From positions 68,329-132,328 of the forward strand of contig CAVVLX010000007.1 of the NCBI GenBank assembly GCA_963749195.1: 64,000 bases of DNA, written 5' to 3'. Shown here piece after piece: positions 1 to 42,813 of the stretch (positions are counted from its first letter, which is position 1; every line of letters starts with the position of its first letter). Made by a program: the position numbers and the translations under genes. The notes beneath the pieces are model-generated. The model had not been told where the DNA came from and ran no database searches. It worked only from the letters and a program-made list of their open reading frames with translations. Source of the stretch: an uncultured Thermoplasmata archaeon (GTDB lineage Archaea; Thermoplasmatota; Thermoplasmata; Lutacidiplasmatales; UBA184).

Positions 1-380
1 TTGGGTCCGTACGGAAGCACCGAATAGGCGGCGGGAAAGATCTTCGGAACAGCCACCGTTTGGCCGAACAGATGGAAGAGGACGATCGGTTGAGCGAAGA
101 ACCCGGTGAACGCCGGGACGAACCAGATGATGAATGCGCCGCCCGTGATGATGACGACCAGAATGAAGCCGATCAGCGACAGTATGTTCGCGCGAAGCAC
201 CTGGATCAGTCGGACGAATCCGCGGTAGGCCTGACGGGAAGCGGACCGTCGAACCGTTCTACGAGGGGCCGTTGGGTTCAACTCCGCCGGCGCGGGGGGG
301 CGACGGGTTCGTCGGTAGGGGTCAGCGTTGGATTGGGAGCTACCTGGGGGGGGACCTCCTCCTCGGCCATCTAGCGCCAC
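1..380 (-). CDS. ABC transporter permease, DppC/OppC type (N-terminal part; gene runs off the window start)
   Basis: The minus-strand frame reads ...LNPTAPRRTVRRSASRQAYRGFVRLIQVLRANILSLIGFILVVIITGGAFIIWFVPAFTGFF... This is the basic N-terminus plus first TM helix typical of the second Dpp/Opp permease. It lies directly downstream of the DppB-type permease. The start is ambiguous: in-frame GTG at 380 (overlaps the upstream stop) or TTG at 281. Confidence 0.7.
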   Translation of the reverse strand, partial: MALDGRGGGPPPGSSQSNADPYRRTRRPPAPAELNPTAPRRTVRRSASRQAYRGFVRLIQVLRANILSLIGFILVVIITGGAFIIWFVPAFTGFFAQPIVLFHLFGQTVAVPKIFPAAYSVLPYGP

Positions 381-1393
381 TCCACCCGAGGGTCGATGAT
401 CCCGTAGAGAATATCCGCGATGAGATTCGCGACGACGACGGCGATCGAAAAGACGATGACGACGCCAATCGTGCCCGCAAAATTGTAATTGATGATCGCG
501 TTGTAGGCATACTGTCCGATCCCCGGCCACGAAAAGATCTCCTCAACCACAACGGTCCCCGACAGCAGGCCGCTCGCCGTGAACCCGAGCACCGTCGTGG
601 TCGTGATCAACGAGTTTCGGAGCGCATGCTTGAAGAGCACGACCTCCTGCGAGAGTCCTTTCATTTTCGCGCTTTTCACATATTCGAGCGGGAGCACCTC
701 GAGCATGGACGAGCGGGTCATGCGCGTGATGATCCCCAAGTTCAGAAACGCGAGCGCGCTCGCGGGCAAGATCAGATGGACGATGGCCTCGCCCGTGAAC
801 GCCAGATTGCCGGCTAATAGGGCGTCGATCACCGACATATGCGTCGGTTGCGGAAACGGCGGCGGATTGGTCGTGAAATCGCCCCCACTCGGCAGTCCTA
901 AAACTGGACCCACGGCGATGGCCAGCACGATCGCCGCGAGATAGGTCGGAGCCGCCCACCCACTGAGGTAGAAGATGCGGACGAGGTGGTCTGGCCACCG
1001 CCCGGAGAAGTGGGCGGCGATGACGCCGAGCGTGATCCCAAAGACGATCATCAAGAACAGGGAGGCAAGGACGAGTTCGATCGTTTCCGGCAGCGCGGCC
1101 TGGATCGCCGGGAGGACCGGGCCGGTTCCGTTGGGGTCGACCCCCCAGTTGCCCTGCGCCAGCTGAACGAGATATTTGTAGAATTGAACATAGATCGGCT
1201 GGTCCAAGCCAAAATACTTGGAGCACGCGGCCAGGGCGTCGGGCTTCGCTCGAGGGATCCATCGCGCGCAGGGGTCGGAAACTCCGATATGGATGAAGAT
1301 GAAGGTGATCAGAATCGCCCCGATCACGACGGGGATGAGCTCGAGGAACCGGATCGCGATGAAGATGGCCAGGTCGCGAAGGCTCCGTCCCAT
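371..1393 (-). CDS. ABC transporter permease, DppB/OppB type
   Basis: 340-aa multi-TM ORF (MGRSLRDLAIFIAIRFLELIPVVIGAILITF...). It has the binding-protein-dependent transport loop region (...ITRMTRSSMLEVLPLEYVKSAKMKGLS...) typical of peptide/nickel-family permeases. Confidence 0.9.
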   Translation of the reverse strand: MGRSLRDLAIFIAIRFLELIPVVIGAILITFIFIHIGVSDPCARWIPRAKPDALAACSKYFGLDQPIYVQFYKYLVQLAQGNWGVDPNGTGPVLPAIQAALPETIELVLASLFLMIVFGITLGVIAAHFSGRWPDHLVRIFYLSGWAAPTYLAAIVLAIAVGPVLGLPSGGDFTTNPPPFPQPTHMSVIDALLAGNLAFTGEAIVHLILPASALAFLNLGIITRMTRSSMLEVLPLEYVKSAKMKGLSQEVVLFKHALRNSLITTTTVLGFTASGLLSGTVVVEEIFSWPGIGQYAYNAIINYNFAGTIGVVIVFSIAVVVANLIADILYGIIDPRVEWR

Positions 1394-1529
1394 ACGGACC
1401 TACTCGACCTTCCCAACGGGAGGGTCGGGGTTGGACGATCCTTCGCGGCGACGCACGAGGCCCTCGGACTGTCCCCCGGCTAATAAATGCCACGGCGAAG
1501 CCGGTCCGGCGTGTGGATCTTGCGGGTCG

Positions 1530-1985
1530 TCACGGGGCGACGGGGGAAGCCGGCCCCTCGGACGAAAGGTGTTTTGTCAAAGAGGCCGCAAACGCTTCCG
1601 CGTCGCCCTGAACGCGGCGCTTGAGGTAGCCGTCGATCACGACCCGAAGTGGGCCAGCACCGGTCATCTTCAGCCGGAGCGTCACGGCGGTCGAGCGCTC
1701 CCCGTGCGGTGCTAAGTCGATCTGCCCCTCGATTACGGCGTCGGCGCCACGGGCCGCGAACCGGATTCGGGAGTCGCTCGCTTCGAGGAGCTCCCCCTGG
1801 AACTCCGACCGGCGCGTGAGCGGCCCGATCTTGATCTCTACGAGCCAGGTCGCGGTGGTCGGAGATTTCGGCTCCACTCCCACCACTTGGGGGATGTTGG
1901 ACGCCAGGAATCGGGGATCCTTGAGCATCGCCACGATCCGGTCGGGCGCGGCGGGTAAAGTGAAAGGGATCGTCGCAGTCGGCAC
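1530..1985 (-). CDS. SRPBCC-fold protein, CoxG-like (carbon monoxide dehydrogenase subunit G family)
   Basis: 151-aa ORF with a CoxG-like pattern (...FLASNIPQVVGVEPKSPTTATWLVEIKIGPL...GQIDLAP...TAVTLRLKMTGAGPL...IDGYLKRRV...). It starts 13 nt downstream of the PYROXD2-like gene on the same strand. Confidence 0.6.
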   Translation of the reverse strand: MPTATIPFTLPAAPDRIVAMLKDPRFLASNIPQVVGVEPKSPTTATWLVEIKIGPLTRRSEFQGELLEASDSRIRFAARGADAVIEGQIDLAPHGERSTAVTLRLKMTGAGPLRVVIDGYLKRRVQGDAEAFAASLTKHLSSEGPASPVAP

Positions 1986-1998
1986 GCTCGGGCTCTCC

Positions 1999-3561
1999 TT
2001 AGTTTGGAATGGTTCTCGCCGGTCCTTTCAGATCGTCGAGGATCACCTGAGCGGCGTTATGGCCAGGTGCCCCGATGACCCCACCCCCGGGATGCGTCGC
2101 AGAGCCGCACAAGTAGAGCCCCGGAACGGGCGTACGATAGTTGGCCCATCCCGGAAGGGGACGCATCGAGAAAATCTGGTCGGGAGTGATGTCTCCCTGG
2201 TCGATGTTGCCGCCCGGCATGCCCAAGATCCGTTCGATATCGGCCGGCGTGACCACTTGCCAGTGACGAACGAGCGACCGGATCCCCGGTGCATAGCCCT
2301 CGAGGGTCGTTAACACGGTGTCCGCGACCGATTCGCGGGCCTCATCCCAGCTCTGCCCCGCAAGTTCCGTCGGGGCGAATTGAACGAAACACGTCATCGT
2401 GTGCTTTCCCGGCGGCGCGGTGCTGGGGTCGGCCAGGGATTGAAAATATAGGTCAATGTACGGCGCTCGGGAGAAGTGGCCGAACTTGGCGTCGTCGTAC
2501 GCGTGTTCGATGTACTCCATCGAGGGCGCGATATCGATCGCCCCCGCGAGATACCCGGAATTCGGCGCGGCCTCAAATCGCGGGAGCCGCTCGAGGGCCG
2601 CGTTGAATTTGAGACACGCGCCCCGCGCCTTGATGCGCCGTATCTTCGACTCCACCGTCGGGTCGAGGGTATCCGGCGGCAGAAATTTGAGCAGCGTGGT
2701 TTGCGCATCCACCGAGGAGGCAACGACGCGGCTTCGGTGGATCGATCCCTCATCCGTCTCCACCGCCACCGCTCGACCATGCTCGAGAAGGATTCGCCGC
2801 ACGCCCGCTCCGGTCACGATCTCCGCTCCGTGTCGGCGAGCTGACTCCGCGATGGCCTGCGTAATCGCCCCCATCCCCCCCTTCATCTGACCCCAAACTC
2901 GTCGATATCCCTCCAACGTCCCGATGTTATGATGGCCGAGGATGTACGCGGTTCCCGGCGTGTACGGTCCCGCAAAGGTCCCGATGACTGCGGAGGAGGA
3001 GAGGGCCCCTTTCAGTTCCGGCGACTCGAACCAGTCGTCCAGGAAATCGCTCGCGCTCTTGAGAAACAGATCCCGCAGGAGCGGCTCGGCATCGCCGGAG
3101 GGCAGCGTCTGGAAGAAATCGGCGATCGGCATCGGCGGAGCCATCATCGCCGGTTCGATTACGTCCAGCACTCGATCCCAGTACTCGACATACTTGGGAT
3201 AGGCGCGGGCGTCCTTCTCGGAGAATTTAGCGATCTCTGCCTGCTCCTTCGCGTCATCGACCCAGAATGCGAGGTATCGTCCGTCCGGCTGGGGGGCGAA
3301 TCCTTGGGGATCGCAGAGAATCGGTTGATAGCCATAGCGCGCGAGTTCGAGATCCTGGATAATCTGGGGGCGCAGCAGCCCGCTGGCGTAGGCGAAGGTG
3401 TTGATTCGGTACCCCGGCCAAGGCTCCTCCGTCACGCACGCCCCTCCCACGATGGATCGACGCTCGAGTACGAGCACGCGAGCCCCCGCCTTCGCCAGAT
3501 ACGCGGCGGTGATCAGCCCGTTATGACCGGCGCCAATGATGATCGCATCATAGTCGGCCAT
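1999..3561 (-). CDS. PYROXD2-like / CrtI-family FAD-dependent oxidoreductase (paralogue 1)
   Basis: Track ORF 1999..3687 trimmed to the internal ATG at 3561 (MADYDAIIIGAGHNGL, an N-terminal FAD Rossmann GxGxxG). It shares blocks with COG1233 flavoproteins and, from memory, with animal PYROXD2: FSEKDARAYPKY, DDWFES, GHHNIG, DPSTAPPGKH, GGNIDQGDITPDQ, LYLCGSATHPGGGV. A TATA-like element at 3581..3590 lies ~25 nt upstream. Confidence 0.9.
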   Translation of the reverse strand: MADYDAIIIGAGHNGLITAAYLAKAGARVLVLERRSIVGGACVTEEPWPGYRINTFAYASGLLRPQIIQDLELARYGYQPILCDPQGFAPQPDGRYLAFWVDDAKEQAEIAKFSEKDARAYPKYVEYWDRVLDVIEPAMMAPPMPIADFFQTLPSGDAEPLLRDLFLKSASDFLDDWFESPELKGALSSSAVIGTFAGPYTPGTAYILGHHNIGTLEGYRRVWGQMKGGMGAITQAIAESARRHGAEIVTGAGVRRILLEHGRAVAVETDEGSIHRSRVVASSVDAQTTLLKFLPPDTLDPTVESKIRRIKARGACLKFNAALERLPRFEAAPNSGYLAGAIDIAPSMEYIEHAYDDAKFGHFSRAPYIDLYFQSLADPSTAPPGKHTMTCFVQFAPTELAGQSWDEARESVADTVLTTLEGYAPGIRSLVRHWQVVTPADIERILGMPGGNIDQGDITPDQIFSMRPLPGWANYRTPVPGLYLCGSATHPGGGVIGAPGHNAAQVILDDLKGPARTIPN

Positions 3562-3631
3562 AAGTTCCGGGAGGAGGGCCGATACAAAAGGCGATAGGTC
3601 GGCAAGATTCGGGGGGGGCGACCGGGCAAGA

Positions 3632-4882
3632 TTGACTTCGCGCCGCCGAGAGGAACCCGAACCGTTATCCCCGTTCTCGACTCCCAAGAGAAACCGACCC
3701 GCGAGGGAGTCCGTGACGAAGCATTCGGTGGGCTCGGATATCCCCGATCTGTTACGAGCCGGATCGCCCGAGTTTCGGGCCGTCGACCGCCCCTTGGAGC
3801 GAGCCTCGACCCTGCCGGGTCGAATGTTCAGCGATCAGGACGTCTACGCGGCCGAGATGGACCGGCTCTTCCGACGCGTCTGGCATTGCGTCGGACGCGC
3901 CGATGAAATCGCGAATCCCGGGGACTTTCGAACGTATGAGGTGGCGGGTTCCGGTGTCGTAGTGGTGCGCAACTCGGAAGGGGATCTGAAGGCGTACCAC
4001 AATGTCTGCCGTCATCGCGGAACCTGTCTGGTGGAGGCGCCCTCTGGCTCCGGGCTCAAGCGAATCCTGTGTCCCTACCATGCGTGGACCTACGATCTGA
4101 ATGGCCGCCTCCTCGGCGCCCCCCACATGTCCGAAGTGGAGGATTTCGAGCGAAGTGAGAATGGCCTGATCCCCGTCTCGCTCGACGAGTGGCGAGGGTT
4201 CCTCTTCCTCAACCTCAGTCCCCAGGCGGAATCGCTCAAACGAGCGCTTGGCGACCTCCCCCGACGCGCCCAACCGTACCCGTTAGAGCGACTTCGACTC
4301 GCGCATCGGGTAACCTACGACGTCCACGCCAACTGGAAGCTCATCGTCCAAAACGCCAACGAGTGTTACCATTGCCCCGGAGTCCACCCGCAACTGGTCT
4401 GTTTGACCCCCTATCGATCGGGCCAGGAAGACCTGCGCCAAGGGCCGGTCTTCGGCGGGTGGATGGATTTCGTCCCCGGGGTCTCCAGCCTCACGGCGAG
4501 TGGCCAAACGACGCGGCCCACCTTTTCAGAGCTCTCTCCCGAGGACTTGGCTCGGGTGTATTATTACGTGCTCTGGCCGGCGAATTTCCTCAGCTTCCTT
4601 CCCGACTACGTGACATTGGATTGGTTCATCCCGAAGGGCCCCGACCTCACGCAGCTGGTCTTCGACCTCTACGTGGAACGCAACGAACGAGATCCGGCGA
4701 ATGATGCGATGGAGTTTTGGGACATGACGAACCGCCAGGATTGGCATATCTGCGAGCTGGCCCACCGCGGATCAAAAACGCTCGGGTACACGCAGGGTCG
4801 GTACAGCGGAGAGGAGGAGGTCGTGCATCTGGTCGATCGGTACTACCTCCAACGGATGGGGCTGCTCAAGCGGGCTCGCTGA
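3632..4882 (+). CDS. Rieske [2Fe-2S] non-heme-iron oxygenase, alpha-subunit type (GbcA/CntA/choline-monooxygenase-like), paralogue 1
   Basis: Rieske motif CRHRGTCL...(17 aa)...CPYHAWTY. Mononuclear-iron region ANWKLIVQNANECYHCPGVHP. The start is uncertain: TTG at 3632 (track) or GTG at 3713. Confidence 0.88.
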   Translation: MTSRRREEPEPLSPFSTPKRNRPARESVTKHSVGSDIPDLLRAGSPEFRAVDRPLERASTLPGRMFSDQDVYAAEMDRLFRRVWHCVGRADEIANPGDFRTYEVAGSGVVVVRNSEGDLKAYHNVCRHRGTCLVEAPSGSGLKRILCPYHAWTYDLNGRLLGAPHMSEVEDFERSENGLIPVSLDEWRGFLFLNLSPQAESLKRALGDLPRRAQPYPLERLRLAHRVTYDVHANWKLIVQNANECYHCPGVHPQLVCLTPYRSGQEDLRQGPVFGGWMDFVPGVSSLTASGQTTRPTFSELSPEDLARVYYYVLWPANFLSFLPDYVTLDWFIPKGPDLTQLVFDLYVERNERDPANDAMEFWDMTNRQDWHICELAHRGSKTLGYTQGRYSGEEEVVHLVDRYYLQRMGLLKRAR

Positions 4883-4918
4883 TCCGAGCCTCCCCACGGC
4901 GGGGTCAATCAGGCGGGC

Positions 4919-6085
4919 CTACTTGTGGGCCTTCAGTTGCTCGTCGACGAACATATCGAAGTCGCAGACGAGGGTCTCTTGTTCGCTGTATCGGCCCCCA
5001 TGCCAGACCCGCGAGTGGGTTCCCTGCTGGCCGAGCTCACAAACGCGCCAGTCCTGGCGGTTGATCTCATCCCATAGACCGGCCGCGTCACTCGGGTCGA
5101 ACCCGGGGCTCTCGGCGGCCTCTCGAGTAAAGTAGAATTCGTTCTCCACGCGGGAATGCGAGGGCGATTGCGGTAAGATCCGGTGAATCATCACGTAATC
5201 CGGCTGGATACTGAAGAAGGTATTCGGAAAGAGCGTGTAGTAGTAGACCCGCTTCTTGTCCTCCTCCGTCATTCCGGGGATCAACGGGCGAGAGGTGTAT
5301 CCGGATCGAGTCATGGACTGGTAATCTTTCGCGAACGTCATGAACCCCCCCGAGAAACTCCCCATCCGACCGGCTTCGTGGAAAAAGGCGTCGTTATCAC
5401 CCGTCATGTAGGGCGTCAACCGATTGAGCTCGGGATGGATCGGGGCGCAGTGGTAGCATTCCGAGAAGTTCTCGACCAACAGCTTCCAATTTGCTTCGAT
5501 CTCGTAGGCGTGGCGCGCGCCGAGCTGTAGTTCGGAGATCGGAAACCGTTGAAACCGATCGAAAAATCGGCCTAGCTGATCCCGCAGCGAGGGACCGGTA
5601 GGCTCTAGGTTCGCAAAGAGGAACCCTCCCCAACGGTCCAATCGGACCGGAAAGAGCCCGTACTCCTTCCGATCGAAGTCGACCAGCTCCCGGGTATGCG
5701 ACGCCGCCGTCAGCTTCCCATCGAGGGAGTAGGTCCATGCATGATACGGGCAAACGATCGACTTCGATACCGATCCCTCGGTTTCCGACAGCAGCCGCGT
5801 GCCCCGGTGCCGACAGAGATTGTAGAAGCCGTGAACCTCGCCGGCTTGGTTCCGGATAAAAAAGACATTCTCCGGCCCCAATTGTCGAGTGAAGTAATCG
5901 CCCGGCCGGGGGATCTGGTCCTCCCGTCCCATCAACAGCCAACTCGGGAAGAAGAATTGTTCGAGTTCCGCCTGGAAAATAGCCGGGTCCCAGTAGTTTC
6001 GACCGTCGGGCGTGCGCTGGCTCAAGTGGGCTGTGGGCTCGCCCGGCTCGACTCGCGGCAGGGAAGATTCGACCCGAGAACTCAT
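4919..6085 (-). CDS. Rieske [2Fe-2S] non-heme-iron oxygenase, alpha-subunit type, paralogue 2
   Basis: Rieske motif CRHRGTRL...CPYHAWTY and iron motif ANWKLLVENFSECYHCAPIHP. Convergent with paralogue 1 across a 36-nt gap. TATA-like GTTTTATC (minus strand, 6110..6117) lies ~28 nt upstream of ATG 6085. Confidence 0.9.
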   Translation of the reverse strand: MSSRVESSLPRVEPGEPTAHLSQRTPDGRNYWDPAIFQAELEQFFFPSWLLMGREDQIPRPGDYFTRQLGPENVFFIRNQAGEVHGFYNLCRHRGTRLLSETEGSVSKSIVCPYHAWTYSLDGKLTAASHTRELVDFDRKEYGLFPVRLDRWGGFLFANLEPTGPSLRDQLGRFFDRFQRFPISELQLGARHAYEIEANWKLLVENFSECYHCAPIHPELNRLTPYMTGDNDAFFHEAGRMGSFSGGFMTFAKDYQSMTRSGYTSRPLIPGMTEEDKKRVYYYTLFPNTFFSIQPDYVMIHRILPQSPSHSRVENEFYFTREAAESPGFDPSDAAGLWDEINRQDWRVCELGQQGTHSRVWHGGRYSEQETLVCDFDMFVDEQLKAHK

Positions 6086-6257
6086 GCGAACAAGTGGGAC
6101 CTCCCCCGGGATAAAACCTTGCCGTTTTCGCCCGCTGCCCGCGCAAGTTGATTGGGAATGAAGCCGAGGGAAATCGGGCCCTAACGGGGCGTGGTCGACG
6201 GGGTATACGGGTCGGTTTGTCGGGCCAAAAACTCGGGCATGACAGAGTATATCAGGA

Positions 6258-8204: not shown

Positions 8205-8322
8205 GGGGGAAACCGGCCCCGGAAGCGTTATCCCTCCGACCTTTTCCCCGCCGCCGAGAGGCGACCCCATTAGGGCCCAAAAGACGCGAATCCTGCTGAT
8301 CGGGTGCGGCGCCATCGGCTCC

Positions 8323-9435
8323 GTGATCGCTCGCCACTTGGCGGCGCATGCCGCGATCGACGAAGTCGTATTGGCCGACGTGGACCTTCGATGGGCCGAA
8401 CGGCTCCGCGCCGACATCGATCATCCGAAATTGACCCCGATCGCCCTAGATGCCAGCAACCCCTCCGCCGTCCAAACCGCGGCGCAAGATTCGTCGGTGG
8501 TCATCAATTCGAGCGTCCCCCGATTCAACCCGATCATCCAGCGCGCCGCGCTCCACGTGGGCTCGCATTACCTGGACCTCGCGAACGACTCCAGCGATCC
8601 GTTCGTCGGCGATCCGCCCTGGAAAGCCGCTGGGAAAACGGCGATCGTGGGGCTCGGAGAGGACCCGGGGCTGAGCAATCTCATGGTCCGGTACGCGACT
8701 GATTCGATGGACCGGGTGGATTCGATCAAGGTACGAGACGGCGATACCGGGACCTCGCCCGATTACCCCTTCATCTGTCTCTTCAGCCCGGAAACGTTTG
8801 TCGAGGAAACCCTCCACACGTCTCGCATCTGGGAAGGAGGCCGATATTCTGACGTTCCCCCGTTTGGACGAAAGGAGATCTACGAGTTTCCGGCTCCCGT
8901 GGGCCCCCAACCAGTCTACTCCGTCGATCACGAGGAGGTCGACACGCTTCCCCGGACGATCGGGAAGGGGGTCCAGTATGTCGATTTCAAGCTCGCCCTC
9001 GACGATAATGCAGTGCGGACCCTCACCCTCTTACGCGACCTCAAGCTCTTGGAACGCGGCCCGCCGGGAGGCCCGAACCCTCGGCAAGCCGTCTTCGCCA
9101 CGATCCCGAAACCGGCCGAACTGACCGGCAAGATCGAGGGCTCCGCCGCGCTCGTCGTCGAAGTCCGGGGCCAAGAAAACGGCGAAGCGAAAGAGCACAC
9201 GCTCTTCACCGTGCTCGACCATCGCGAGGCGAGCGCCAAGTACCACGCTACGGGTACCGCCTATCTGACCGGAAGCCCGGCGGCGGTGGGCGCGATCCTC
9301 CTTGCCACCGGCCAGATCCGGACTCCCGGCCTCTTTTCGCCGGAGTCGCTCGATCCCAAGCCGTTCCTCGCCCTGCTCCAGGAGCGCGGCATCGTCGTCC
9401 GAGAGCGGATCACCCGAGAGCGGGCGATCGGTTAG
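8323..9435 (+). CDS. Saccharopine-dehydrogenase-like NAD(P)-binding protein (paralogue 1)
   Basis: Saccharopine DH family blocks (GLGEDPGLSNLM, SPETFVEE, YEFPAPVG). Coordinates follow the first canonical start, GTG 8323. The Rossmann motif (KTRILLIGCGAIGS) is encoded in-frame upstream, from 8281. The real start is therefore probably near 8269 (see findings). Confidence 0.85.
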   Translation: MIARHLAAHAAIDEVVLADVDLRWAERLRADIDHPKLTPIALDASNPSAVQTAAQDSSVVINSSVPRFNPIIQRAALHVGSHYLDLANDSSDPFVGDPPWKAAGKTAIVGLGEDPGLSNLMVRYATDSMDRVDSIKVRDGDTGTSPDYPFICLFSPETFVEETLHTSRIWEGGRYSDVPPFGRKEIYEFPAPVGPQPVYSVDHEEVDTLPRTIGKGVQYVDFKLALDDNAVRTLTLLRDLKLLERGPPGGPNPRQAVFATIPKPAELTGKIEGSAALVVEVRGQENGEAKEHTLFTVLDHREASAKYHATGTAYLTGSPAAVGAILLATGQIRTPGLFSPESLDPKPFLALLQERGIVVRERITRERAIG

Positions 9436-9447
9436 CGGTGGATCCGG

Positions 9448-10812
9448 TCAGCGAGCTTGCCGTCGGATCGCGGCTTCCAGCGTATCGAGCGATTCATCGA
9501 ACGTCGCTTCGGGAATCGTGAGCGGCGGCTGGATGCGCAGGAAGTTGTCCCCATAGTTCCATAACGGGATCGTCCCGTGTTTCACGCAGTCGAAAAACAC
9601 CCGTCGGGCGAGTTTGGGATCCGGCGCACGGGTCGAGGATCTCTGAACGAGTTCGACGGCCAACGCTAGGCCGAGCCCGCGCGTATCCCCGACCGCATCG
9701 AAACGCTCCCATTCGTGGATACGTCGGAGGGCTCGAGCCCCCAACTGGGCGGATCGTTCGGGGAGTCGATCCCGACGCAAGATCTCGAGCGTGACCGTGG
9801 CGGCGACGCACGCGGCGGGATGGCCCCCGAACGTTGTTCCAGCCGCGACGGTCGAGTTGCCCATGATCGATTCCGTTCCCATGACGGCCGCGATGGGCAT
9901 GAGGCCCCCACTGATTCCCTTGCCGATCGCGAGGAGGTCAGGGACGGCGTGGGAATGCTCGATCGCCCACATCCGGCCGGTGCGTCCTAGGCCTGCCTCG
10001 ACCTCGTCGTCGATGAAGATCCACCCATAGGCACGACACATTTTCTGAAGTTTGTTCGCAAACCCAGGGGGAGGAATCCACGTACCGGCTTCCAACGCGA
10101 TCGGCTCAAAGATCACCCCCGCGATTCGATCTGGGGCGGCGATGTGTTTCAACAGCTTTTCCTCGATGTAGTCGAGGACCCACCCGCCGTATTCGGCTTC
10201 GGACATTCCGCGCGGACGATTCAGCGCGAAGGGGTACGGGGCGTGAACCGCCCCGCCTTGGAACGCCTCCCAGTACCGTCGCTCCTGGGCGCTCAACGAA
10301 CCCACCACCCCGGTCCCGATGCTCAGGCCGTGATACTGTCCCATGAAGCTGAGGATCAGGGGCCGATGACTTGTTTCGACCGCGTATTTCACGGCGCCTT
10401 CGGCGGCGCCGGTGCCCGAGAGTTCAAGGAAAACGCGACTTAGGTTGGGCGACGGTCGGACTTCGACCAGCTTCTCCGCGAGCTGGATCATCGGGATATG
10501 CGGATTCATGAAGTAAATCAGAAATCCATACTGCCGGAGCGCCTCCACCGTCGCTTCGAGGACTTCGGGAGGTACGTTCCCGAGATTGTTCGTCCCCCAC
10601 TGGCTCGTGAGGTCGATGTACGACTTTCCCTCCGCGTCGAACAGTTGGGACCCCTTCGCTCCGGCGACGATGAGGCTCGACAGCCGATGCTCTTCGTCCC
10701 AGAAGTACCGCGGCATCAAACGTCGGTACCGCCGCCAGTACTCCGCGGACCCGACGGACTTTCGAGAGGCCCCGTCCCGTCGCCGATTCACGGATCGTCG
10801 TCCTTGGCCCAT
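9448..10812 (-). CDS. Class-III (omega / acetylornithine-GABA type) PLP-dependent aminotransferase
   Basis: Class-III blocks: SGTGAAEGAVKYA, IFIDDEVEAGLGRTGRMWAIEH, PDLLAIGKGISGG (PLP lysine), TFGGHP. The start may be the internal ATG (MPRYFWDEE, about 10716). Confidence 0.9.
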   Translation of the reverse strand: MGQGRRSVNRRRDGASRKSVGSAEYWRRYRRLMPRYFWDEEHRLSSLIVAGAKGSQLFDAEGKSYIDLTSQWGTNNLGNVPPEVLEATVEALRQYGFLIYFMNPHIPMIQLAEKLVEVRPSPNLSRVFLELSGTGAAEGAVKYAVETSHRPLILSFMGQYHGLSIGTGVVGSLSAQERRYWEAFQGGAVHAPYPFALNRPRGMSEAEYGGWVLDYIEEKLLKHIAAPDRIAGVIFEPIALEAGTWIPPPGFANKLQKMCRAYGWIFIDDEVEAGLGRTGRMWAIEHSHAVPDLLAIGKGISGGLMPIAAVMGTESIMGNSTVAAGTTFGGHPAACVAATVTLEILRRDRLPERSAQLGARALRRIHEWERFDAVGDTRGLGLALAVELVQRSSTRAPDPKLARRVFFDCVKHGTIPLWNYGDNFLRIQPPLTIPEATFDESLDTLEAAIRRQAR

Positions 10813-10883
10813 TCAAGCACTCCCGGATGACTCCGCGATTCGGAAGCGTGCGATCGGACTCCTACGACCGGTTCCTTCCGCAA

Positions 10884-12449
10884 TTAGGTGGAGCCCGCGC
10901 TCTGATGCAGATCCTCGATGACGACTTGGGCGGCGTTGTGGCCGGGGGCTCCCATGACGCCCCCCCCCGGATGCGCGGTCGATCCACAGAAGTACAGTCC
11001 CGGCAGGGGCGTTCGATACTGCGCCCAGCCCAGCATCGGGCGGAATCCGAAGATTTGATCGGGCGTGATATCGCCTTGGAAGATGTTCCCGCCCGTCAGC
11101 CCCAAGATTTGCTCGATATCCTGAGGGGAAATGATCTGCCAGTGCTCGATGCACGCTCGGATGTCGGGCATGTATTCCTCGAGCGTGTTCAGAACGATCT
11201 CGGCGGCTTCCGGCTTGAACTCCTCCCAGCTCTGCCCATTCCGAAGTTCGTAGGGGGCGTACTGCACGAAACAAGTCATCGTGTGTTTTCCGGGCGGGGC
11301 TACGGTGGGATCGGACGCGCTCTGAAAGACGCAGTCGGCGAACGGGTGGTCGGAAAATCTCCCGTACTTTCCCTGATCATAGGCGTGCTCCAAATAATCC
11401 ATGGACGGCGCGATCTCCACGGCTCCCCGGTGATGGGGTCCCGGGGTCTCGGGCGCGGCCCGGAACGTGGGCAACTTGCTCAGAGCGGCATTGAATTTGA
11501 GCGCCGCTCCTCGACTGCGGAATTTGCGCACCTCGCTCAGGACTTCCGGACCGACCGCGTCCGGTGGCAGGAGGTGCAAGATCGTGTGCTTCGCCTCGAG
11601 ACCAGAGAGAATCGCTCTCGCGTAGATGGTCTCCCCTTCCGCGGTCTCGACCCCCACGGCGCGGCCGTTTTGGATGAGTATCTGGCGAACCGTGACTTGG
11701 GTCCGGATCGTCGCCCCGAAGTGTCGAGCGGCTTGTGCGATCGACTCGGAGATGCGTCCCATTCCCCCGACCGAAAATCCCCAGACCTTGCGCTGGCCGT
11801 CCAGAATGCCGACGTTATGATGCGCGAGCACGTACGCCGTGCCCGGGGTCCGTGGACCCACCATCTCCCCGATCACCGCGTTGGTCGCGAAGGAGATCTT
11901 GACCTGATCGGACTCGAACCAATCGTCGAGGAAATCTTGCGCACTCATCAAGAACAGGTCCCGGACCAACTCCTCGGCCTCCGGTCCGCGGAACATTCCG
12001 ACCAGATCGGCGAGTGGGACGGGCGGGGCAAGCAGCAGGGGCTCGACGAGGTCGAGAACGTTGTCCCAATACTTGTCGAACTTCGGGTACGCCTGCGCAT
12101 CCTTCTTCGAAAATTTGGAGATCTCTCGAACGGACTTTTGCTCGTCATTCCAAATGCTCAGGCTGCGTCCGTCCGGGAACGGAACGAACGCTTGCGGATC
12201 GTAGAGGATCGTAGCATACCCAAACTTTTTCAGCTCGAGGTCGTCGACGATTTGTGGGCGAAAGAGTCCCGCGACGTAGGAGAACGTATTGATGTGAAAT
12301 CCGGGCCAGGTCTCCTCGGTCACCGCAGCTCCGCCGACGATCGGGCGGCGTTCCAGCACGAGCACTTTCGCTCCTGCTTTCGCGAGGTACGCCGCGGCAA
12401 CGAGCCCGTTATGCCCTCCGCCGATGATGATCGCGTCGTAACTGGCCAT
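10884..12449 (-). CDS. PYROXD2-like / CrtI-family FAD-dependent oxidoreductase (paralogue 2)
   Basis: MASYDAIIIGGGHNGLVAAAYLAKAGAKVLVLERR... Collinear with paralogue 1 over its full length, roughly 55-60% identical by eye. Same conserved blocks: DDWFES, AHHNVG, DPTVAPPGKH, GGNIFQGDITPDQ, LYFCGSTAHPGGGV. Confidence 0.92.
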   Translation of the reverse strand: MASYDAIIIGGGHNGLVAAAYLAKAGAKVLVLERRPIVGGAAVTEETWPGFHINTFSYVAGLFRPQIVDDLELKKFGYATILYDPQAFVPFPDGRSLSIWNDEQKSVREISKFSKKDAQAYPKFDKYWDNVLDLVEPLLLAPPVPLADLVGMFRGPEAEELVRDLFLMSAQDFLDDWFESDQVKISFATNAVIGEMVGPRTPGTAYVLAHHNVGILDGQRKVWGFSVGGMGRISESIAQAARHFGATIRTQVTVRQILIQNGRAVGVETAEGETIYARAILSGLEAKHTILHLLPPDAVGPEVLSEVRKFRSRGAALKFNAALSKLPTFRAAPETPGPHHRGAVEIAPSMDYLEHAYDQGKYGRFSDHPFADCVFQSASDPTVAPPGKHTMTCFVQYAPYELRNGQSWEEFKPEAAEIVLNTLEEYMPDIRACIEHWQIISPQDIEQILGLTGGNIFQGDITPDQIFGFRPMLGWAQYRTPLPGLYFCGSTAHPGGGVMGAPGHNAAQVVIEDLHQSAGST

Positions 12450-12583
12450 CGATACGCTCCGAGACCGCGGCTGCCAGCCTCCACCCCCATTTAAAAGTCG
12501 TTACGAGACGGGGATCGCGCTGGTCCAAATCGGACGCCGACGCCCGAAGAGAGGGACGGTTTCTCCCCTTCCCGAGACCGATC

Positions 12584-13777
12584 CTATGACCCTGCGAACG
12601 GGGGCAACGGAGGCTCGAGAGGAACGATCGTCGTCCGAATTCCGCGTGTGGCCAATGCCGCCCGGAACGGGGCTGCGGGAACCGAAAGCTCGGGAGGAAT
12701 GACGCCCACCCCGCGCATTTGTTTCTCCAAGAACATTTCCGCCCCTACCGCGCCACACACTCCCACGACGTACTCCGTCGCCGACGCTCCCCATTCGGGT
12801 TTCGGGGGAAAAAGACCATACGCGTGCCGGGTCACTGGGGCTCCATTCCGCGTGCCGTGCACCTCGAGGTCAACGATCTCCCAGTCGTTGATCACGACTC
12901 CCGCGGGAACCCCGAGTAGTTTTTCCCGCTTCAATAGCGCCAGAAGAAATTCTCGCGGAGCGATGGAGGCCCCTCGTACGTCCAAAGGTTTCTCGGCGCC
13001 GAGTCCCAGCAGCGACAGCGTGCGAAGCAGGTCGATCCCCGGTCCTCCCTCGCGCCATTCACAGTGCTGCAGCTGCTTTTCCTTGAGACTCTCCGGCAAC
13101 GTCGCCGCCTCGGAGTGGAGGGTCCGATACAATCGAGTCCGACCCACCGGCGGGGGGAAATCGTACTCCTCGGCGCCGCTCATCGCAGGGTAGTTGCGGT
13201 ACGCGCCGTCCTCCCAGACGACGGCGTCCAAGATCATCTCGTCGAGGAACGTGCTCGGCGACCACGTGAACGAGATTTCCGAGCCCCCCACCGTGAGGTC
13301 GCGCCAACCGTCCCGGATCAGAATGGACTCGACCCGTTCGAGATCGTTCGTCGATTGCGCCGCGAGCACATTCGAAACGCCCGGAACTTGGCCCATTCCG
13401 GGGATCGCGAGCAACCCGGCATCCCGGTAACGACGATCGAGTTCCAACTGTCGCCGTGTCATGTGAAAGAGCCCGCCGAAATCCAGGTAGGAAACTCCCG
13501 CCGACAAGCACCCTTCCATCACGTGGAGATTGAACGTGTACTGGACGGCATTGACACACACATCGGCATGCTGGAGCACGTTTCGAAGCGATGCGGCGTC
13601 CCGGACATCCACCTGGGCCGCCGTCACTCGATCGTCCCCCGTCGCGCGCGCGGCGGAGCGCGCGAGTTCGAGATCGAGGTCCGCGACGTGAATCGACTCA
13701 AACCGCCGCGTTCGCGCGAGATCCCGGACGGTGGAGCGGCCCGTCAATCCTCCTCCACCTAGGACGACTGCGCGCAA
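12584..13777 (-). CDS. Saccharopine-dehydrogenase-like NAD(P)-binding protein (paralogue 2)
   Basis: MRAVVLGGGGLTGRSTVRDLA (Rossmann fold), GMGQVPGVSNVL, SPSTFLDE, YDFPPPVG. A distant paralogue of 8323..9435. Confidence 0.85.
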   Translation of the reverse strand: MRAVVLGGGGLTGRSTVRDLARTRRFESIHVADLDLELARSAARATGDDRVTAAQVDVRDAASLRNVLQHADVCVNAVQYTFNLHVMEGCLSAGVSYLDFGGLFHMTRRQLELDRRYRDAGLLAIPGMGQVPGVSNVLAAQSTNDLERVESILIRDGWRDLTVGGSEISFTWSPSTFLDEMILDAVVWEDGAYRNYPAMSGAEEYDFPPPVGRTRLYRTLHSEAATLPESLKEKQLQHCEWREGGPGIDLLRTLSLLGLGAEKPLDVRGASIAPREFLLALLKREKLLGVPAGVVINDWEIVDLEVHGTRNGAPVTRHAYGLFPPKPEWGASATEYVVGVCGAVGAEMFLEKQMRGVGVIPPELSVPAAPFRAALATRGIRTTIVPLEPPLPPFAGS

Positions 13778-23896: not shown

Positions 23897-24147
23897 TCGT
23901 GGTCCTGCGTCGCACCTATTCCACGGCGGCGATCGCCGAGCAGGTCCGACGGGCGGTCGCAGCGGACGATCCCTCCTACGTTCGCAGCTCCGTTCTCGGC
24001 GCCGTGCTCGAGTATCGTATCGAGGCGCCGCACGCGGCGAGCGCCCGCGCCACGCTGGACGACCTCCTAGCCTGTGTGAACGCCGCCGAGCACTCTCTAT
24101 CCCTCACGGAGTCGTCCCACCGCTCGACGCCGGAAATCGGCCGCTGA
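23893..24147 (+). CDS. KEOPS subunit Pcc1-like protein (84 aa)
   Basis: VIVVLRRTYSTAAIAEQVRRAVAADDPSYVRSSVLGAVLEYRIEAPHAASARATLDDLLACVNAAEHSL fits the Pcc1 pattern (A..v..a....rS.v....L...ieA.d..alRatl...L..i.aae). The GTG start overlaps the upstream stop. Confidence 0.5.
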   Translation: MIVVLRRTYSTAAIAEQVRRAVAADDPSYVRSSVLGAVLEYRIEAPHAASARATLDDLLACVNAAEHSLSLTESSHRSTPEIGR

Positions 24148-25939: not shown

Positions 25940-26011
25940 CGATCTCACTCGAATCCGGAAACGCTCCACGACGATCGAATTGATAAGTAACTGCGACCGC
26001 TCCTATCCCCG

Positions 26012-37238: not shown

Positions 37239-37498
37239 TCCCGAACCTCGTCGAAGTCGGTAGACGGCTCGAGCTATATCTATAACTTTGAAACGTCGGT
37301 ATCCCCCGGCCGTAACGGTAGCGCGTCACGGTAGGCCAAAGCCCTCTCCGCGTCCTGACCCCGGCCGGGGCTGTCGGATACCGGGGTTGTCCTCACTTCA
37401 CTCCCAACGGACGACACGTCCGTATCGGGTCAAGAGGGACCCTTCGTCGGTACCCGGGGGGACTTGACATCCCTCCGACCGCGGCACCGTCTCAGAGA

Positions 37499-40657: not shown

Positions 40658-40713
40658 ATCTCCCTTTCAGCGAACGTCGGACTTCGCCGGAGGGCGGTCC
40701 GACGCGTTCGAGG

Positions 40714-42766: not shown

Positions 42767-42813
42767 ACTCGCTCGGCTCCGGCTTCTCCCGCAAGGATGC
42801 GGGAAAGGCGACG

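Follow-up and report, generated by a model that had tools for sequence, protein, structure and literature searches.

In the GbcAB, DgcAB and SoxBDAG pathway of glycine-betaine demethylation, a Rieske oxygenase deals with the quaternary nitrogen and flavoproteins then take the tertiary and secondary N-methyl groups, the one-carbon unit being accepted by the GcvT-type folate domain of SoxA. Similarly, a flavin amine dehydrogenase and a GcvT folate-binding module demethylate N-methyl amines in heterotetrameric sarcosine oxidase and in the dimethylglycine and sarcosine dehydrogenases (DMGDH/SARDH), where the one-carbon unit passes to the folate-dependent GcvT domain. Group V Rieske oxygenases, to which CntA of the carnitine monooxygenase CntAB, choline monooxygenase and OxyBAC (group Va) belong, are marked by a bridging Glu, two His and a Cys-x-x-Cys pair, with the signature E-C-Y-H-C (PMC7948474, PMC10952381). 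An aromatic residue at CntA position 203 makes a pi-cation contact with the trimethylammonium group, and Asn-203 marks the demethylase clade of GbcA and the stachydrine demethylase Stc2, group Vb (PMC7948474).

Mammalian PYROXD2 is an orphan mitochondrial flavoprotein, and no report of biochemical activity for any member of its family was found in the literature searched. The human locus is associated with TMA and DMA (PMC3169529) and with N6-methyl- and N6,N6-dimethyl-lysine (PMC9730628, PMC13352909), which confirms and sharpens the link to methylamine-type metabolites that an earlier note on this DNA had mentioned. These metabolites fit an N-methyl-amine oxidising role.

Here we analysed 64,000 nucleotides (the window) of an uncultured Thermoplasmata archaeon, a soil organism; an initial guess of Thermoplasmatota as the source proved correct. 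Gene identities, family placement, gene-content conservation and the co-location of Rieske, GcvT and PYROXD2-like genes were computed. Judged from its genes, the first 13.8 kb is, on balance, probably an island conserved in Thermoplasmata that serves to break down an amine with an amino-alkyl backbone and either N-methyl groups or a quaternary ammonium.

Gene content and boundaries of the island

Pfam and NCBIfam searches of positions 1-13777 recovered every gene family that the earlier note had named, at or very near the place where it had put each. Most of its gene coordinates held, while the starts of Rieske-1 (3713, not 3632) and SDH-like 1 (upstream of 8323) were revised. The features are as follows.

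1..371, minus strand: DppC-type ABC permease, N-terminal 123 aa, truncated by the window edge (similarity to L003)
371..1393, minus strand: DppB/NikB-type ABC permease, 340 aa (PF00528)
1530..1985, minus strand: SRPBCC/CoxG-like small protein, 151 aa (PF10604 and PF06240)
1999..3561, minus strand: PYROXD2-family FAD oxidoreductase 1 (FAD1), CrtI/amine-oxidase fold, 520 aa
3665..3671, plus strand: TTATCCC element, promoter-like, about 45 nt upstream of Rieske-1
3713..4882 (longest ORF from 3632), plus strand: Rieske-1, putative group V Rieske oxygenase, 389 aa (Rieske and Ring_hydroxyl_A)
4919..6085, minus strand: Rieske-2, putative group V (Va-like) Rieske oxygenase, 388 aa (Rieske and Ring_hydroxyl_A)
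6108..6114, minus strand: TTATCCC element, about 25 nt upstream of Rieske-2
6258..8204, plus strand: family-5 solute-binding protein, SBP_bac_5, 648 aa, N-terminal membrane anchor (PF00496, 150 bits)
8228..8234, plus strand: TTATCCC element, about 40 nt upstream of the SDH-like 1 ATT start
8269..9435, probable ATT start, plus strand: saccharopine-dehydrogenase-fold protein 1 (SDH-like 1), about 388 aa (PF16653 and PF03435)
9448..10812, minus strand: class-III PLP enzyme, Aminotran_3, 454 aa (PF00202, 261 bits)
10884..12449, minus strand: PYROXD2-family FAD oxidoreductase 2 (FAD2), 521 aa (60% identity to FAD1)
12584..13777, minus strand: saccharopine-dehydrogenase-fold protein 2 (SDH-like 2), 397 aa (PF03435 and PF16653)

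The most likely start of Rieske-1 is the GTG at 3713, which gives 389 aa as in the orthologue of a related locus, L003. In SDH-like 1 the Rossmann motif ILLIGCGAIGS (GxGxxG) precedes the first ATG, GTG or TTG of the ORF, so the true start lies upstream of 8323; it is likely the ATT at 8269, which is conserved in L003.

On the left the window edge truncates the island. The DppC fragment is 83% identical to residues 42-117 of a 388-aa BPD_transp_1 protein that follows DppB in L003, where the continuation beyond this edge comprises the DppC remainder, a canonical flavin amine oxidase, a cupin, a HemL-like aminotransferase and DppD/F ATPases. The right edge is real, and from 13.8 kb onward there are a GDE_C glycosidase, an ABC-2 exporter and a thioredoxin-reductase-like gene. 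The remaining 50 kb contains no additional copy of any island gene, indicating that the clustering of these families is no background property of the region.

Conservation across Thermoplasmata

The island gene content recurs, in shuffled order, in six other loci from Thermoplasmata genomes and metagenomes (L001, L002, L003/L004, L005, L006 and L007), with 46-94% identity between counterpart proteins. The earlier note had made its reading depend on the neighbourhood being kept in related genomes, and this comparison found that it is. The core Rieske-2, Rieske-1 and FAD1 is contiguous in every one of these loci. Each paralogue has its own orthologue group there, so the duplications are old and retained; that of FAD2 is present in L001-L005. 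The relatives' loci also carry a canonical amine oxidase, a HemL-like aminotransferase, aminobutyraldehyde/betaine-aldehyde-type dehydrogenases (a BADH-like enzyme in L005) and an agmatinase-family gene, which are hints of a long-chain amine.

Rieske oxygenases of the island

Rieske-1 and Rieske-2 are 41% identical (E 5e-103). Their motif sequences are NWKLIVQNANECYHC and NWKLLVENFSECYHC, respectively; both proteins retain E-C-Y-H-C and have the full set of bridging Glu, two His and Cys-x-x-Cys pair. CntA was the best PDB match of both in phmmer, near full length (157 bits for Rieske-1; 162 bits for Rieske-2, with an alignment spanning residues 31-363), and Stc2 was also among the best solved relatives, while aromatic dioxygenases reached at most 118 bits. 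Judged by these sequence marks, both proteins belong to the quaternary-amine group V and lie outside the aromatic ring-hydroxylating enzymes; a place among the latter is what the earlier note had singled out as damaging to its reading.

The position of CntA Tyr203 is Phe in Rieske-2 and Ala in Rieske-1. It is Phe or Tyr in 120/120 Rieske-2 orthologues among the matches listed, and in 108 of the 141 Rieske-1 relatives with a readable motif (150 cluster representatives listed). The Rieske-1 clade is narrow, with just one full-length 50%-identity cluster above 45% identity. The GbcA/Stc2 demethylase type was ruled out for both proteins, as neither has Asn-203. The earlier grouping with choline monooxygenase, GbcA, CntA and Stc2 thus holds at the level of group V and is too coarse in naming GbcA and Stc2.

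Like CntAB, the island has no beta-subunit gene. However, identity to CntA is low, judged by the phmmer scores, the island has two diverged oxygenases, one of them with Ala at 203, and no CntB-type reductase gene adjoins them. The neighbouring genes are also different: where CntAB is accompanied by a carnitine transporter and malic semialdehyde dehydrogenase, the island has PYROXD2-like flavoproteins, SDH-fold enzymes and an importer of Dpp type.

Classical catabolism of small betaines (glycine betaine, choline, carnitine) would make the Rieske proteins GbcA or CMO, with the flavoproteins replacing the dimethylglycine and sarcosine demethylases. GbcA is the top NCBIfam model for both Rieske proteins, and many orthologues are named 'glycine betaine catabolism A' by JGI, an automatic label (K00479); enrichment of K00479 in Ca. 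Angelarchaeales has been interpreted as betaine catabolism (PMC9038741). The BADH-like enzyme of L005 and the GcvT and flavoprotein modules described below, which look like dimethylglycine/sarcosine oxidation, point the same way. However, the Rieske proteins reach only 195 and 215 bits with the GbcA model, whose cut-off is 670, and match over the N-terminal half alone, and Asn-203 of the Stc2/GbcA clade is absent (PMC7948474). Moreover, the importer belongs to the Dpp/Nik type and to neither BCCT nor ProU, and a C2 betaine leaves no role for two SDH-fold enzymes, one or two omega-aminotransferases, the amine oxidase and the aminoaldehyde dehydrogenases. We consider this explanation quite unlikely and favour a methylated amine with a longer, amino-alkyl backbone.

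PYROXD2-like flavoproteins and their genomic neighbours

FAD1 and FAD2 are 60% identical over 518 aa, at the upper end of the 55-60% estimated by eye in the earlier note. Its proposal of PYROXD2 kinship was borne out against real PYROXD2 sequences: mouse PYROXD2 matched over the full length at 41% identity to FAD1 (E 9e-135, 391 bits) and 40% to FAD2, and the motifs GxGHNGL, TPG(T/S)xY(V/I)LxHH and HPGGGV are common to them. PYROXD2 differs in its mitochondrial presequence and internal insertions. The sole full-length solved relative of FAD1, and its best, is CrtI (4dgk, 71 bits); the FAD fold is shared and the CrtO model aligns end to end. However, the flavoproteins score 312-340 bits against the CrtO cut-off of 1000 and 120-135 against the crtI-family cut-off of 238, and no carotenoid genes lie nearby. 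The automatic label 'phytoene dehydrogenase-like', which stems from CrtI and CrtO, was rejected on these scores and on the closer match to PYROXD2.

We surveyed 84 loci anchored on the PYROXD2-like family. A GcvT aminomethyltransferase lay within 800 bp of the PYROXD2-like gene in 18 of them, all 18 with tandem FAD paralogues; a group-V-like Rieske gene was present in 19, and 53 had neither. An operon of amino-acid permease, Rieske, GcvT, FAD and FAD' recurs in Pyrinomonadaceae (L020) and in the cultured Lysobacter sp. 2RAF19 (L075). This association of PYROXD2-like genes with GcvT and group-V-like Rieske genes is a new result. The GcvT and flavoprotein pairing recalls SoxA, and the 18 tandem FAD-FAD'-GcvT modules look like a split, non-homologous analogue of DMGDH/SARDH, with the components on separate genes and a flavin domain that is PF01593/CrtI-like rather than PF01266 DAO. 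The island flavoproteins likewise have the CrtI/PYROXD2 fold, not the DAO/Sox fold or the DgcA type, and the island differs from the Gbc/Dgc/Sox pathway in its extra SDH-fold and omega-amine enzymes. GcvT genes, and with them the tandem module, are absent from the window and from L001-L007, and the case for N-demethylation by the flavoproteins therefore comes from paralogous loci.

In a rough neighbour-joining tree without support values, mouse PYROXD2 grouped with a mostly unlinked bacterial sub-clade (45-50% identity), apart from the island and GcvT-linked clades, so function transfer from the island flavoproteins to PYROXD2 is indirect; even so, a Rieske gene lies within 8 kb in several members of the mouse PYROXD2 clade. 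The links to GcvT and Rieske genes strengthen the suggestion of the earlier note that gene neighbourhoods can shed light on the function of PYROXD2, and the archaeal and bacterial neighbours together offer a testable clue to that of the orphan human protein. The CoxG-like gene adjoins a PYROXD2-like gene in L002, L003 and L008, the last outside any island.

The 55 larger window ORFs scanned, a set that did not systematically include small ferredoxin-sized ORFs, yielded no CntB/GbcB-type reductase or ferredoxin, and neither did the annotated genes of L001-L005; the annotated L020 and L075 operons have no conventional reductase gene. The electron supply of the Rieske proteins is therefore unexplained. 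This absence, together with the contiguity of FAD1 and the Rieske pair in all cases, would suit PYROXD2-like flavoproteins that are Rieske redox partners, drawing electrons from NAD(P)H or directly from the demethylated product as they oxidise it, and not independent amine oxidases. However, pyridine-nucleotide oxidoreductase models match the N-terminal FAD dinucleotide motif only, the fold is that of CrtI/amine oxidases with no second NAD(P) domain or Fe-S motif detected, and most family members, mammalian PYROXD2 included, have no Rieske partner. Such a role is very unlikely in our judgement, and we retain amine oxidation as the candidate activity.

Importer, saccharopine-dehydrogenase-fold and PLP enzymes

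The DppB-like permease matched PF00528 at 125 bits, and its best NCBIfam matches were nickel/oligopeptide permeases (Opp2B, 219 bits), all under the cut-offs. The binding protein has the hydrophobic N-terminus VQIVAVVVVVALVLAGIGIYY and gave weak matches only to solved NikA, HbpA and AgaA; family-5 binding proteins carry peptides, nickel or opines more often than betaines. SDH-like 1 and SDH-like 2 are 29% identical (E 4e-35) and score far under every curated functional model, the best solved relatives of SDH-like 2 being saccharopine and carboxyspermidine dehydrogenases (61-70 bits). For the PLP enzyme, the class-III aminotransferase call of the earlier note agrees with the PF00202 match, while the solved structures nearest to it are Pyrococcus horikoshii 7vno and archaeal amino-acid racemases (PMC6047364); it would be an omega-aminotransferase, or possibly a racemase.

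A non-methylated secondary amine (polyamine, opine or nicotianamine-like) could also be the substrate, in which case the flavoproteins would resemble polyamine or opine oxidases in activity, and C-N-C links would be cut by the SDH-fold enzymes. The SDH-like proteins come closest to carboxy(nor)spermidine and saccharopine dehydrogenases, the relatives' amine oxidase, aminobutyraldehyde-dehydrogenase-like and agmatinase-family genes would fit, and opine binders such as AgaA occur among family-5 binding proteins. However, polyamine importers are normally PotD/PotF-type, and the GcvT link at the family level indicates N-methyl groups. The strictly conserved aromatic residue 203 and the group V features of Rieske-2 indicate a quaternary ammonium (PMC7948474). 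This substrate is unlikely.

An island for taking up, and perhaps making, an opine-type metallophore or nickel complex would, like staphylopine systems, pair a Nik-like importer with a dehydrogenase and a PLP racemase. Nickel/metallophore transporters are the best NCBIfam matches of permease and binding protein, racemases occur among the PLP enzyme relatives, and SDH-fold enzymes can catalyse reductive amine condensation. However, every transporter score is far under its cut-off, no nicotianamine-synthase-like or opine-dehydrogenase (CntM-type) gene was seen, the aldehyde dehydrogenases of relatives indicate catabolism, and this reading does not account for two oxygenases and two to four flavin oxidases. 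We regard this as highly improbable.

Proposed route of methylated-amine catabolism

The interpretation in the earlier note is partly supported: gene conservation, group V and PYROXD2 kinship stand, while the catabolic role and direction, the step order and the substrate are still what we infer. Its 'opine' and 'small peptide' options found no specific support. Our best reading is that an imported long-chain methylated amine, possibly a methyl-lysine, loses its N-alkyl groups by stepwise oxidation; the preferred guess at the substrate class is N-epsilon-methylated lysine, ornithine-type or methylated polyamine-like compounds.

The membrane-anchored family-5 binding protein and a DppBCDF transporter would bring the compound in. 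Rieske-2, CntA-like and of group Va with its aromatic pi-cation residue, would hydroxylate the carbon adjoining the quaternary nitrogen, which to our knowledge is not open to attack by flavin, and Rieske-1, with Ala at position 203, may handle a related second substrate or step. The PYROXD2-family flavoproteins would then turn the resulting tertiary or secondary (methyl)amines into imines, which would hydrolyse to an aldehyde or formaldehyde and a less-substituted amine. Both SDH-fold enzymes may split secondary-amine C-N bonds with NAD(P), the class-III PLP enzyme would take off the terminal primary amine, and aldehyde dehydrogenases, which adjoin the island in relatives, would complete the oxidation.

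Promoter-like elements

The window contains six TTATCCC sites, a total not above chance, and three of them sit sense-oriented upstream of island genes. The SDH-like 1 orthologue in L003 has the same element upstream, GCGTTATCCCTCC.

Gene content and gene starts

The candidate catabolic island occupies positions 1-13777 of the window and runs past its left edge. The earlier note had proposed that it imports and degrades an N-alkylated amine, a basic amino acid, an opine-like compound or a small peptide, and its gene inventory was borne out by ORF listing and by Pfam and NCBIfam scans.

Genes of the island (window coordinates, strand, product and basis)
1-371 (-): DppC-type permease, first 123 codons; 83% identical to DppC of the syntenic locus L003
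371-1393 (-): DppB/NikB-type permease; Pfam/NCBIfam
1530-1985 (-): SRPBCC/CoxG-like protein; Pfam
1999-3561 (-): FAD oxidoreductase 1 (FAD1, PYROXD2-family); Pfam, match to mouse PYROXD2
about 3713-4882 (+): Rieske-1 oxygenase alpha subunit; PF00355 and PF00848, convergent with Rieske-2
4919-6085 (-): Rieske-2 oxygenase alpha subunit; PF00355 and PF00848, convergent with Rieske-1
6258-8204 (+): membrane-anchored family-5 binding protein; Pfam
about 8269-9435 (+): saccharopine-dehydrogenase (SDH)-fold protein 1; PF03435 and PF16653
9448-10812 (-): class-III PLP enzyme; Aminotran_3
10884-12449 (-): FAD oxidoreductase 2 (FAD2, PYROXD2-family); Pfam, match to mouse PYROXD2
12584-13777 (-): SDH-fold protein 2; PF03435 and PF16653

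The paralogues are 60% (FAD pair), 41% (Rieske pair) and 29% (SDH-fold pair) identical, and no extra copies of island genes were found across the remaining 50 kb of the window. The longest ORF of Rieske-1 begins at TTG 3632, which adds 81 bases overlapping the divergent promoter region common to Rieske-1 and FAD1. The L003 orthologue and N-terminal conservation favour GTG 3713, which is probably the start. For SDH-fold protein 1, a start upstream of 8323 is needed because the GxGxxG motif is otherwise left out, and no ATG, GTG or TTG lies upstream of the Rossmann motif ILLIGCGAIGS (window 8206-8330). The L003 orthologue (85% identical) shares the in-frame ATT found at 8269, and its NCBI annotation places a non-canonical start at this conserved codon. 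The rare ATT codon at 8269 is thus the likely start.

Conservation of the island in Thermoplasmata

The closest homologues of FAD1 and Rieske-2 were all found in Thermoplasmata metagenome-assembled genomes, the best being 88-90% identical, and the nearest relative is GCA_049300255 (~90% identity). We compared the neighbourhoods of five homologues and of two species representatives from a genome scan (L006 and L007). Rieske-2, Rieske-1 and FAD1 are contiguous in all of them, and the loci also carry the binding protein, SDH-fold protein 1, the PLP enzyme, FAD2 and DppB/C at identities of 46-94%. The earlier note had offered conservation of the neighbourhood as one check, and gene content was indeed kept in every one of these related loci. 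Gene order and orientation vary between lineages while the content stays, which argues for selection on clustering and not for recent common ancestry of one block. Moreover, the orthologues of every paralogue form a group of their own in these genomes, so the duplications are old and have been kept.

L003/L004 (GCA_049300255) is collinear with the window and reveals the genes past its left edge. DppC is completed there, and a canonical flavin amine oxidase (PF01593, 192 bits), a small cupin, a HemL-like class-III enzyme extended at its N-terminus and the DppD/F ATPases are also encoded. Elsewhere, relatives have additional PYROXD2-like copies, a gene of the agmatinase/formimidoylglutamase family, and aldehyde dehydrogenases of the aminobutyraldehyde/betaine-aldehyde type and of other types.

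The Rieske oxygenases are of the quaternary-amine group

Both Rieske proteins carry the CxH...CxxH [2Fe-2S] motif, with CRHRGT...CPYH visible, and the Ring_hydroxyl_A domain (PF00355, PF00848), and no beta-subunit gene is present. Against solved structures, Rieske-2 and Rieske-1 matched CntA over nearly the full length at 162 and 157 bits, Stc2 at 157 and 141 bits and the Ruegeria protein 3n0q at 145 and 143 bits; the best aromatic enzyme reached 118 and 110 bits. The C-terminal part of the CntA alignment is uncertain. Judged by these scores, both are nearer CntA/Stc2 than the aromatic ring-hydroxylating alpha subunits. A bridging Glu and a Cys-x-x-Cys pair flanking the first iron-binding His are a feature of group V, the quaternary-amine oxygenases (PMC10952381, PMC7948474), and Quareshy et al. 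described the Cys pair as peculiar to this group (PMC10952381). We found the corresponding E-C-Y-H-C-x3-H signature as ENFSECYHCAPIH in Rieske-2 and QNANECYHCPGVH in Rieske-1, together with the H-x4-H iron motif in both. By motif and score, both proteins are group V enzymes, and oxidation of a quaternary ammonium group is predicted for them.

Group V is divided by the residue at CntA position 203, according to the same authors (PMC7948474). Clade Va (CntA, choline monooxygenase and OxyBAC) has Tyr or Phe, which makes a pi-cation contact with the trimethylammonium group, and its enzymes hydroxylate the carbon adjoining the nitrogen; clade Vb, with Asn, comprises the N-demethylases Stc2 and GbcA (PMC7948474). 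Rieske-2 has Phe-203, and all 120 orthologues listed have Phe (72) or Tyr (48), as in clade Va. Rieske-1 and its orthologues have a conserved Ala-203 and thus lack the aromatic residue of clade Va. An exhaustive search of 1.84 billion cluster representatives indicated that the Rieske-1 clade is narrow, with a single full-length cluster above 45% identity. Among the best 150 relatives of Rieske-1, position 203 was Tyr in 74, Phe in 34, Ala in 12 and Asn in 3, and the Cys pair was present in 108. With Phe or Ala instead of Asn, membership of clade Vb was rejected for both proteins. GbcA identity was rejected as well, since the NCBIfam GbcA model scored 195 and 215 bits against a cut-off of 670, with only the N-terminal half aligned. 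The earlier note had grouped both proteins with choline monooxygenase, GbcA, CntA and Stc2; the CntA-type part of this grouping holds for Rieske-2 through Phe-203, and the GbcA/Stc2 demethylase part fell for lack of Asn-203.

The Rieske-2 family is publicly annotated as 'glycine betaine catabolism A' (K00479), and K00479 has been counted as betaine catabolism in Ca. Angelarchaeales (PMC9038741). Because Asn-203 is missing and the score is one third of the GbcA cut-off, this label is probably wrong for the Rieske-2 family. Use of plain glycine betaine, choline or carnitine is kept as a rival explanation of the island.

No gene for an FNR/Fer2-type reductase was found among the 55 window ORFs scanned, which were the larger ones, or in the annotated flanks of L001-L005, and this missing reductase is the main point left unexplained. 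The flavoproteins might serve as redox partners of the oxygenases, a rival that we keep; a hand-over of electrons from flavoprotein to Rieske protein would explain the missing reductase gene.

FAD1 and FAD2 as members of the PYROXD2 family

Automatic annotation names FAD1 and FAD2 phytoene-dehydrogenase-like, and their sole full-length solved relative is CrtI (71 bits). Identity as a carotenoid desaturase or ketolase was rejected, with CrtO scores of 340 and 312 bits against a cut-off of 1000 and crtI-family scores of 120 and 135 against 238. Family scores and context together ruled out both the aromatic-compound and the carotenoid readings. A human PYROXD2 sequence, used solely as a probe, matched authentic PYROXD2 entries from primates and mouse at 85-98% identity. 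FAD1 and FAD2 were 41% and 40% identical to mouse PYROXD2 (E = 9e-135 and 2e-132), with an alignment that runs end to end (residues 3-512 against 34-579) and takes in both the FAD motif at the N-terminus and HPGGGV at the C-terminus. On this alignment, FAD1 and FAD2 are true members of the PYROXD2 family. In a rough neighbour-joining tree without support values, FAD1 and FAD2 formed sister Thermoplasmata clades, the copies linked to GcvT genes formed two further clades, and mouse PYROXD2 fell into a mostly unlinked bacterial clade. Orthology to animal PYROXD2 in the sense of a shared sub-clade was rejected on the same rough tree.

The association of the human PYROXD2 locus with methylamine-type metabolites, named in the earlier note, proved correct for trimethylamine (TMA), dimethylamine (DMA) and methyl-lysines (PMC3169529, PMC9730628, PMC13352909). 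The locus controls urinary TMA and plasma DMA (PMC3169529) and, more strongly and repeatedly, N6-methyl-lysine, N6,N6-dimethyl-lysine and N2-acetyl-N6,N6-dimethyl-lysine (PMC9730628, PMC13352909), and biallelic PYROXD2 variants lead to a severe infantile disorder (PMC8777681). The literature searched reported no biochemical activity of PYROXD2, including demethylase activity, and described neither a Rieske-based trimethyllysine degradation nor a cluster of Rieske, saccharopine dehydrogenase and phytoene-type genes.

GcvT and Rieske genes neighbour PYROXD2-like genes in distant lineages

We scanned an alignment of the family against one genome per GTDB species. The best 80 loci (42-66% identity) came from Thermoplasmata and many bacterial phyla and, pooled with the earlier loci, gave 84 non-redundant loci, among which the full island occurs in Thermoplasmata alone. 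At least two PYROXD2-like genes are present in 27 of the 84, usually as a tandem of a 'standard' and a divergent copy. A GcvT-type aminomethyltransferase (PF01571 and PF08669, about 200 bits) lies within 800 bp of a PYROXD2-like gene in 18 of the 84 loci, and all 18 carry the tandem flavoprotein pair. A group-V-like Rieske gene is found in 19/84, within 3 kb in 15 of these, and neither neighbour is found in 53/84. By a rough reckoning, which is not a computed control and assumes that only a few of the thousands of genes in a genome encode GcvT or a group V Rieske protein, about 2% of loci would have such a gene within 10 kb by chance. The window itself contains no GcvT gene.

We identified the same order of genes, APC-type amino-acid permease, group-V-like Rieske, GcvT, FAD and FAD' (the divergent second copy), in two distant lineages. 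In a Pyrinomonadaceae MAG (L020) the operon spans 2626-10299 and is followed by a PLP aldolase; in the cultured Lysobacter sp. 2RAF19 (L075) it spans 6047-13083 and is preceded by an S58 peptidase. Neither operon contains a Rieske reductase gene. A second type of Thermoplasmata locus (L010, L011, L012, L017 and L022) combines GcvT with three PYROXD2-like genes. A Rieske-1 orthologue (67%) and a further family-5 binding protein are encoded in L022 as well, and L012 adds genes for an SDH-fold and a Rieske-2-like protein. In sarcosine oxidase, as in the dehydrogenases of dimethylglycine and sarcosine, the one-carbon unit is accepted by a folate-dependent GcvT domain. The tight linkage of GcvT to the PYROXD2-like pairs is the strongest indication here that these flavoproteins may oxidise N-methyl amines.

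A different arrangement was seen in Eremiobacterota and relatives (L066, L071, L074, L076 and L079), where a divergent group-V-like Rieske pair, both with Tyr-203, adjoins a DAO flavoprotein resembling monomeric sarcosine oxidase. A distance of 6.6-8 kb separates the pair from a PYROXD2-like gene whose sub-clade is the one nearest to the mammalian protein, with a BNR/sortilin-like protein and a TonB-type receptor encoded in between.

SDH-fold proteins, PLP enzyme, transporter and CoxG-like protein

Both SDH-fold proteins contain PF03435, PF16653 and the Rossmann GxGxxG, the last in copy 1 solely if translation starts at ATT 8269. They are of the LYS9/carboxyspermidine-dehydrogenase type, whose NAD(P)-dependent enzymes join an aldehyde to an amine through a secondary-amine C-N bond or break such a bond. 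Carboxynorspermidine synthase and true saccharopine dehydrogenase were rejected (113 and 51 bits against a cut-off of 800; PDB relatives at most 70 bits), and the proteins are far below every curated functional model. In the PLP enzyme, Aminotran_3 spans the protein (residues 46-449, 261 bits) and no specific equivalog cut-off was reached, the best score being 312 against 552. Its nearest relatives are Pyrococcus horikoshii 7vno and the archaeal broad-specificity, Ala/Ser and Ile racemases (PMC6047364), with transaminases of GABA, putrescine and polyamines coming next; its activity could be that of an omega-transaminase or of a racemase. Use of a non-methylated polyamine or an opine is kept as a rival.

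The family-5 binding protein, two permeases and two oligo_HPY ATPases make up a Dpp/Opp/Nik-type importer. The ATPases are visible solely in the syntenic loci L001, L002 and L003, beyond the window edge, and DppC is partial in the window. All scores for likeness to Nik, Opp or Dpp were below the cut-offs, and solved structures (matches of at most 55 bits) gave no ligand clue for the binding protein. A metallophore system is kept as a further rival.

The CoxG/SRPBCC gene directly adjoins a PYROXD2-like gene both in the window (1530-1985) and in L008 (9420-11554), which has the two genes without any other island gene. This suggests a specific pairing, in which the CoxG-like protein might tether its partner to the membrane or deliver a ligand. 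CoxG anchors CO dehydrogenase at the membrane, and by analogy the flavoprotein might conceivably be linked to the membrane or to quinones.

A proposed role in methylated-amine breakdown

The enzymes of the island fit every grade of nitrogen substitution. The quaternary nitrogen would be attacked by the group V Rieske oxygenases, tertiary and secondary nitrogen by the PYROXD2-like flavoproteins together with the canonical amine oxidase just outside the window, secondary-amine nitrogen by the SDH-fold enzymes as well, and the primary amine by the class-III PLP enzyme. The island also encodes an importer, and relatives have aminoaldehyde dehydrogenase genes close by. Import of a methylated or quaternary amine with an amino-alkyl backbone of several carbons, and its oxidative breakdown step by step, is the most economical reading, and one that we believe somewhat more readily than we doubt it. 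As for the substrate, our preferred guess is methylated lysine- or ornithine-type compounds, given the PYROXD2 metabolite associations, the lysine/polyamine relation of the SDH fold, the ornithine/lysine-type relatives of the PLP enzyme and the amino-acid permease of the bacterial operons; the guess is tentative and may well miss. Methylated polyamines or other betaines are also possible.

A wider proposal, about as doubtful as this guess at the substrate, is that the PYROXD2 family comprises N-methyl-amine demethylases, acting for example on N-epsilon-methyl-lysine or TMA/DMA, and in prokaryotes forms a three-part demethylation system, not recognised before, with group V Rieske proteins and GcvT. 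Such a system might be self-sufficient, in that oxidation of the tertiary amine by the flavoprotein would yield two electrons for the Rieske protein attacking the quaternary amine. The demethylase activity proposed for the family would be that of epsilon-alkyl-lysinase, which has long been known and, to our knowledge, has never been given a gene.

Group V Rieske oxygenases and the logic of a Rieske step followed by flavoprotein demethylation are already known. As far as the literature was searched, what appears to be new is the Thermoplasmata island itself, the recruitment of PYROXD2-family flavoproteins together with SDH-fold enzymes in the island and with GcvT in the relatives, and the Ala-203 Rieske clade. 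Human PYROXD2 is a mitochondrial flavoprotein without known reaction, and its locus is among the strongest and most replicated metabolite associations reported. Its prokaryotic relatives beside quaternary-amine Rieske and GcvT genes, in archaea and several bacterial phyla, offer a hypothesis for the bench, with a cultured Lysobacter that carries the Rieske-GcvT-FAD-FAD' operon, and the interest lies mostly in PYROXD2 function becoming directly testable. The results also suggest that abundant soil Thermoplasmata may use methylated amines derived from necromass, and that 'gbcA / betaine catabolism' annotations in these archaea should not be read at face value.

A promoter-like element and the remainder of the window

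The heptamer TTATCCC lies 25-45 nt upstream, in sense orientation, of Rieske-1 (3665-3671, +), Rieske-2 (6108-6114, -) and SDH-fold protein 1 (8228-8234, +). These are three of its six occurrences in 64 kb, a total not above chance. The exact 9-mer CGTTATCCC occurs only twice, upstream of Rieske-1 and SDH-fold protein 1, and the element is also present in L003; with one mismatch the 9-mer has 23 matches in the window, again not above chance. Since the window-wide counts do not exceed chance, we note TTATCCC merely as a promoter-like feature that could be a shared archaeal TATA-like or regulatory site. Rfam identified no riboswitch or other RNA in the island and, in the whole window, solely a 5S rRNA (57662-57783, -) and one tRNA (45478-45551, +).

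The other 50 kb encode unrelated functions, including a GDE_C glycosidase, an ABC-2 exporter, a TrxR-like protein, a geranylgeranyl reductase, a fused electron-transfer flavoprotein (ETF), a class-I tRNA synthetase, a MoxR/DUF58 pair, a split transketolase, an M1 peptidase and a mevalonate-pathway decarboxylase. The fused ETF is a single 621-aa ORF (24104-25969, -) about 10 kb from the island, joining ETF beta-type and alpha-type domains (two PF01012 stretches and PF00766); flavin amine dehydrogenases such as DMGDH/SARDH usually pass their electrons to ETF. At 36288-39324 (-), a MoxR-type AAA ATPase is followed by the DUF58 protein, and several adjacent ORFs of 250-430 aa at 37499-44589 have no Pfam match. 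The gene at 22889-23896 (+) joins DUF1028 with peptidoglycan-binding-type domains (PG_binding_2) in one protein, a fusion that is unexpected in an archaeon without murein.
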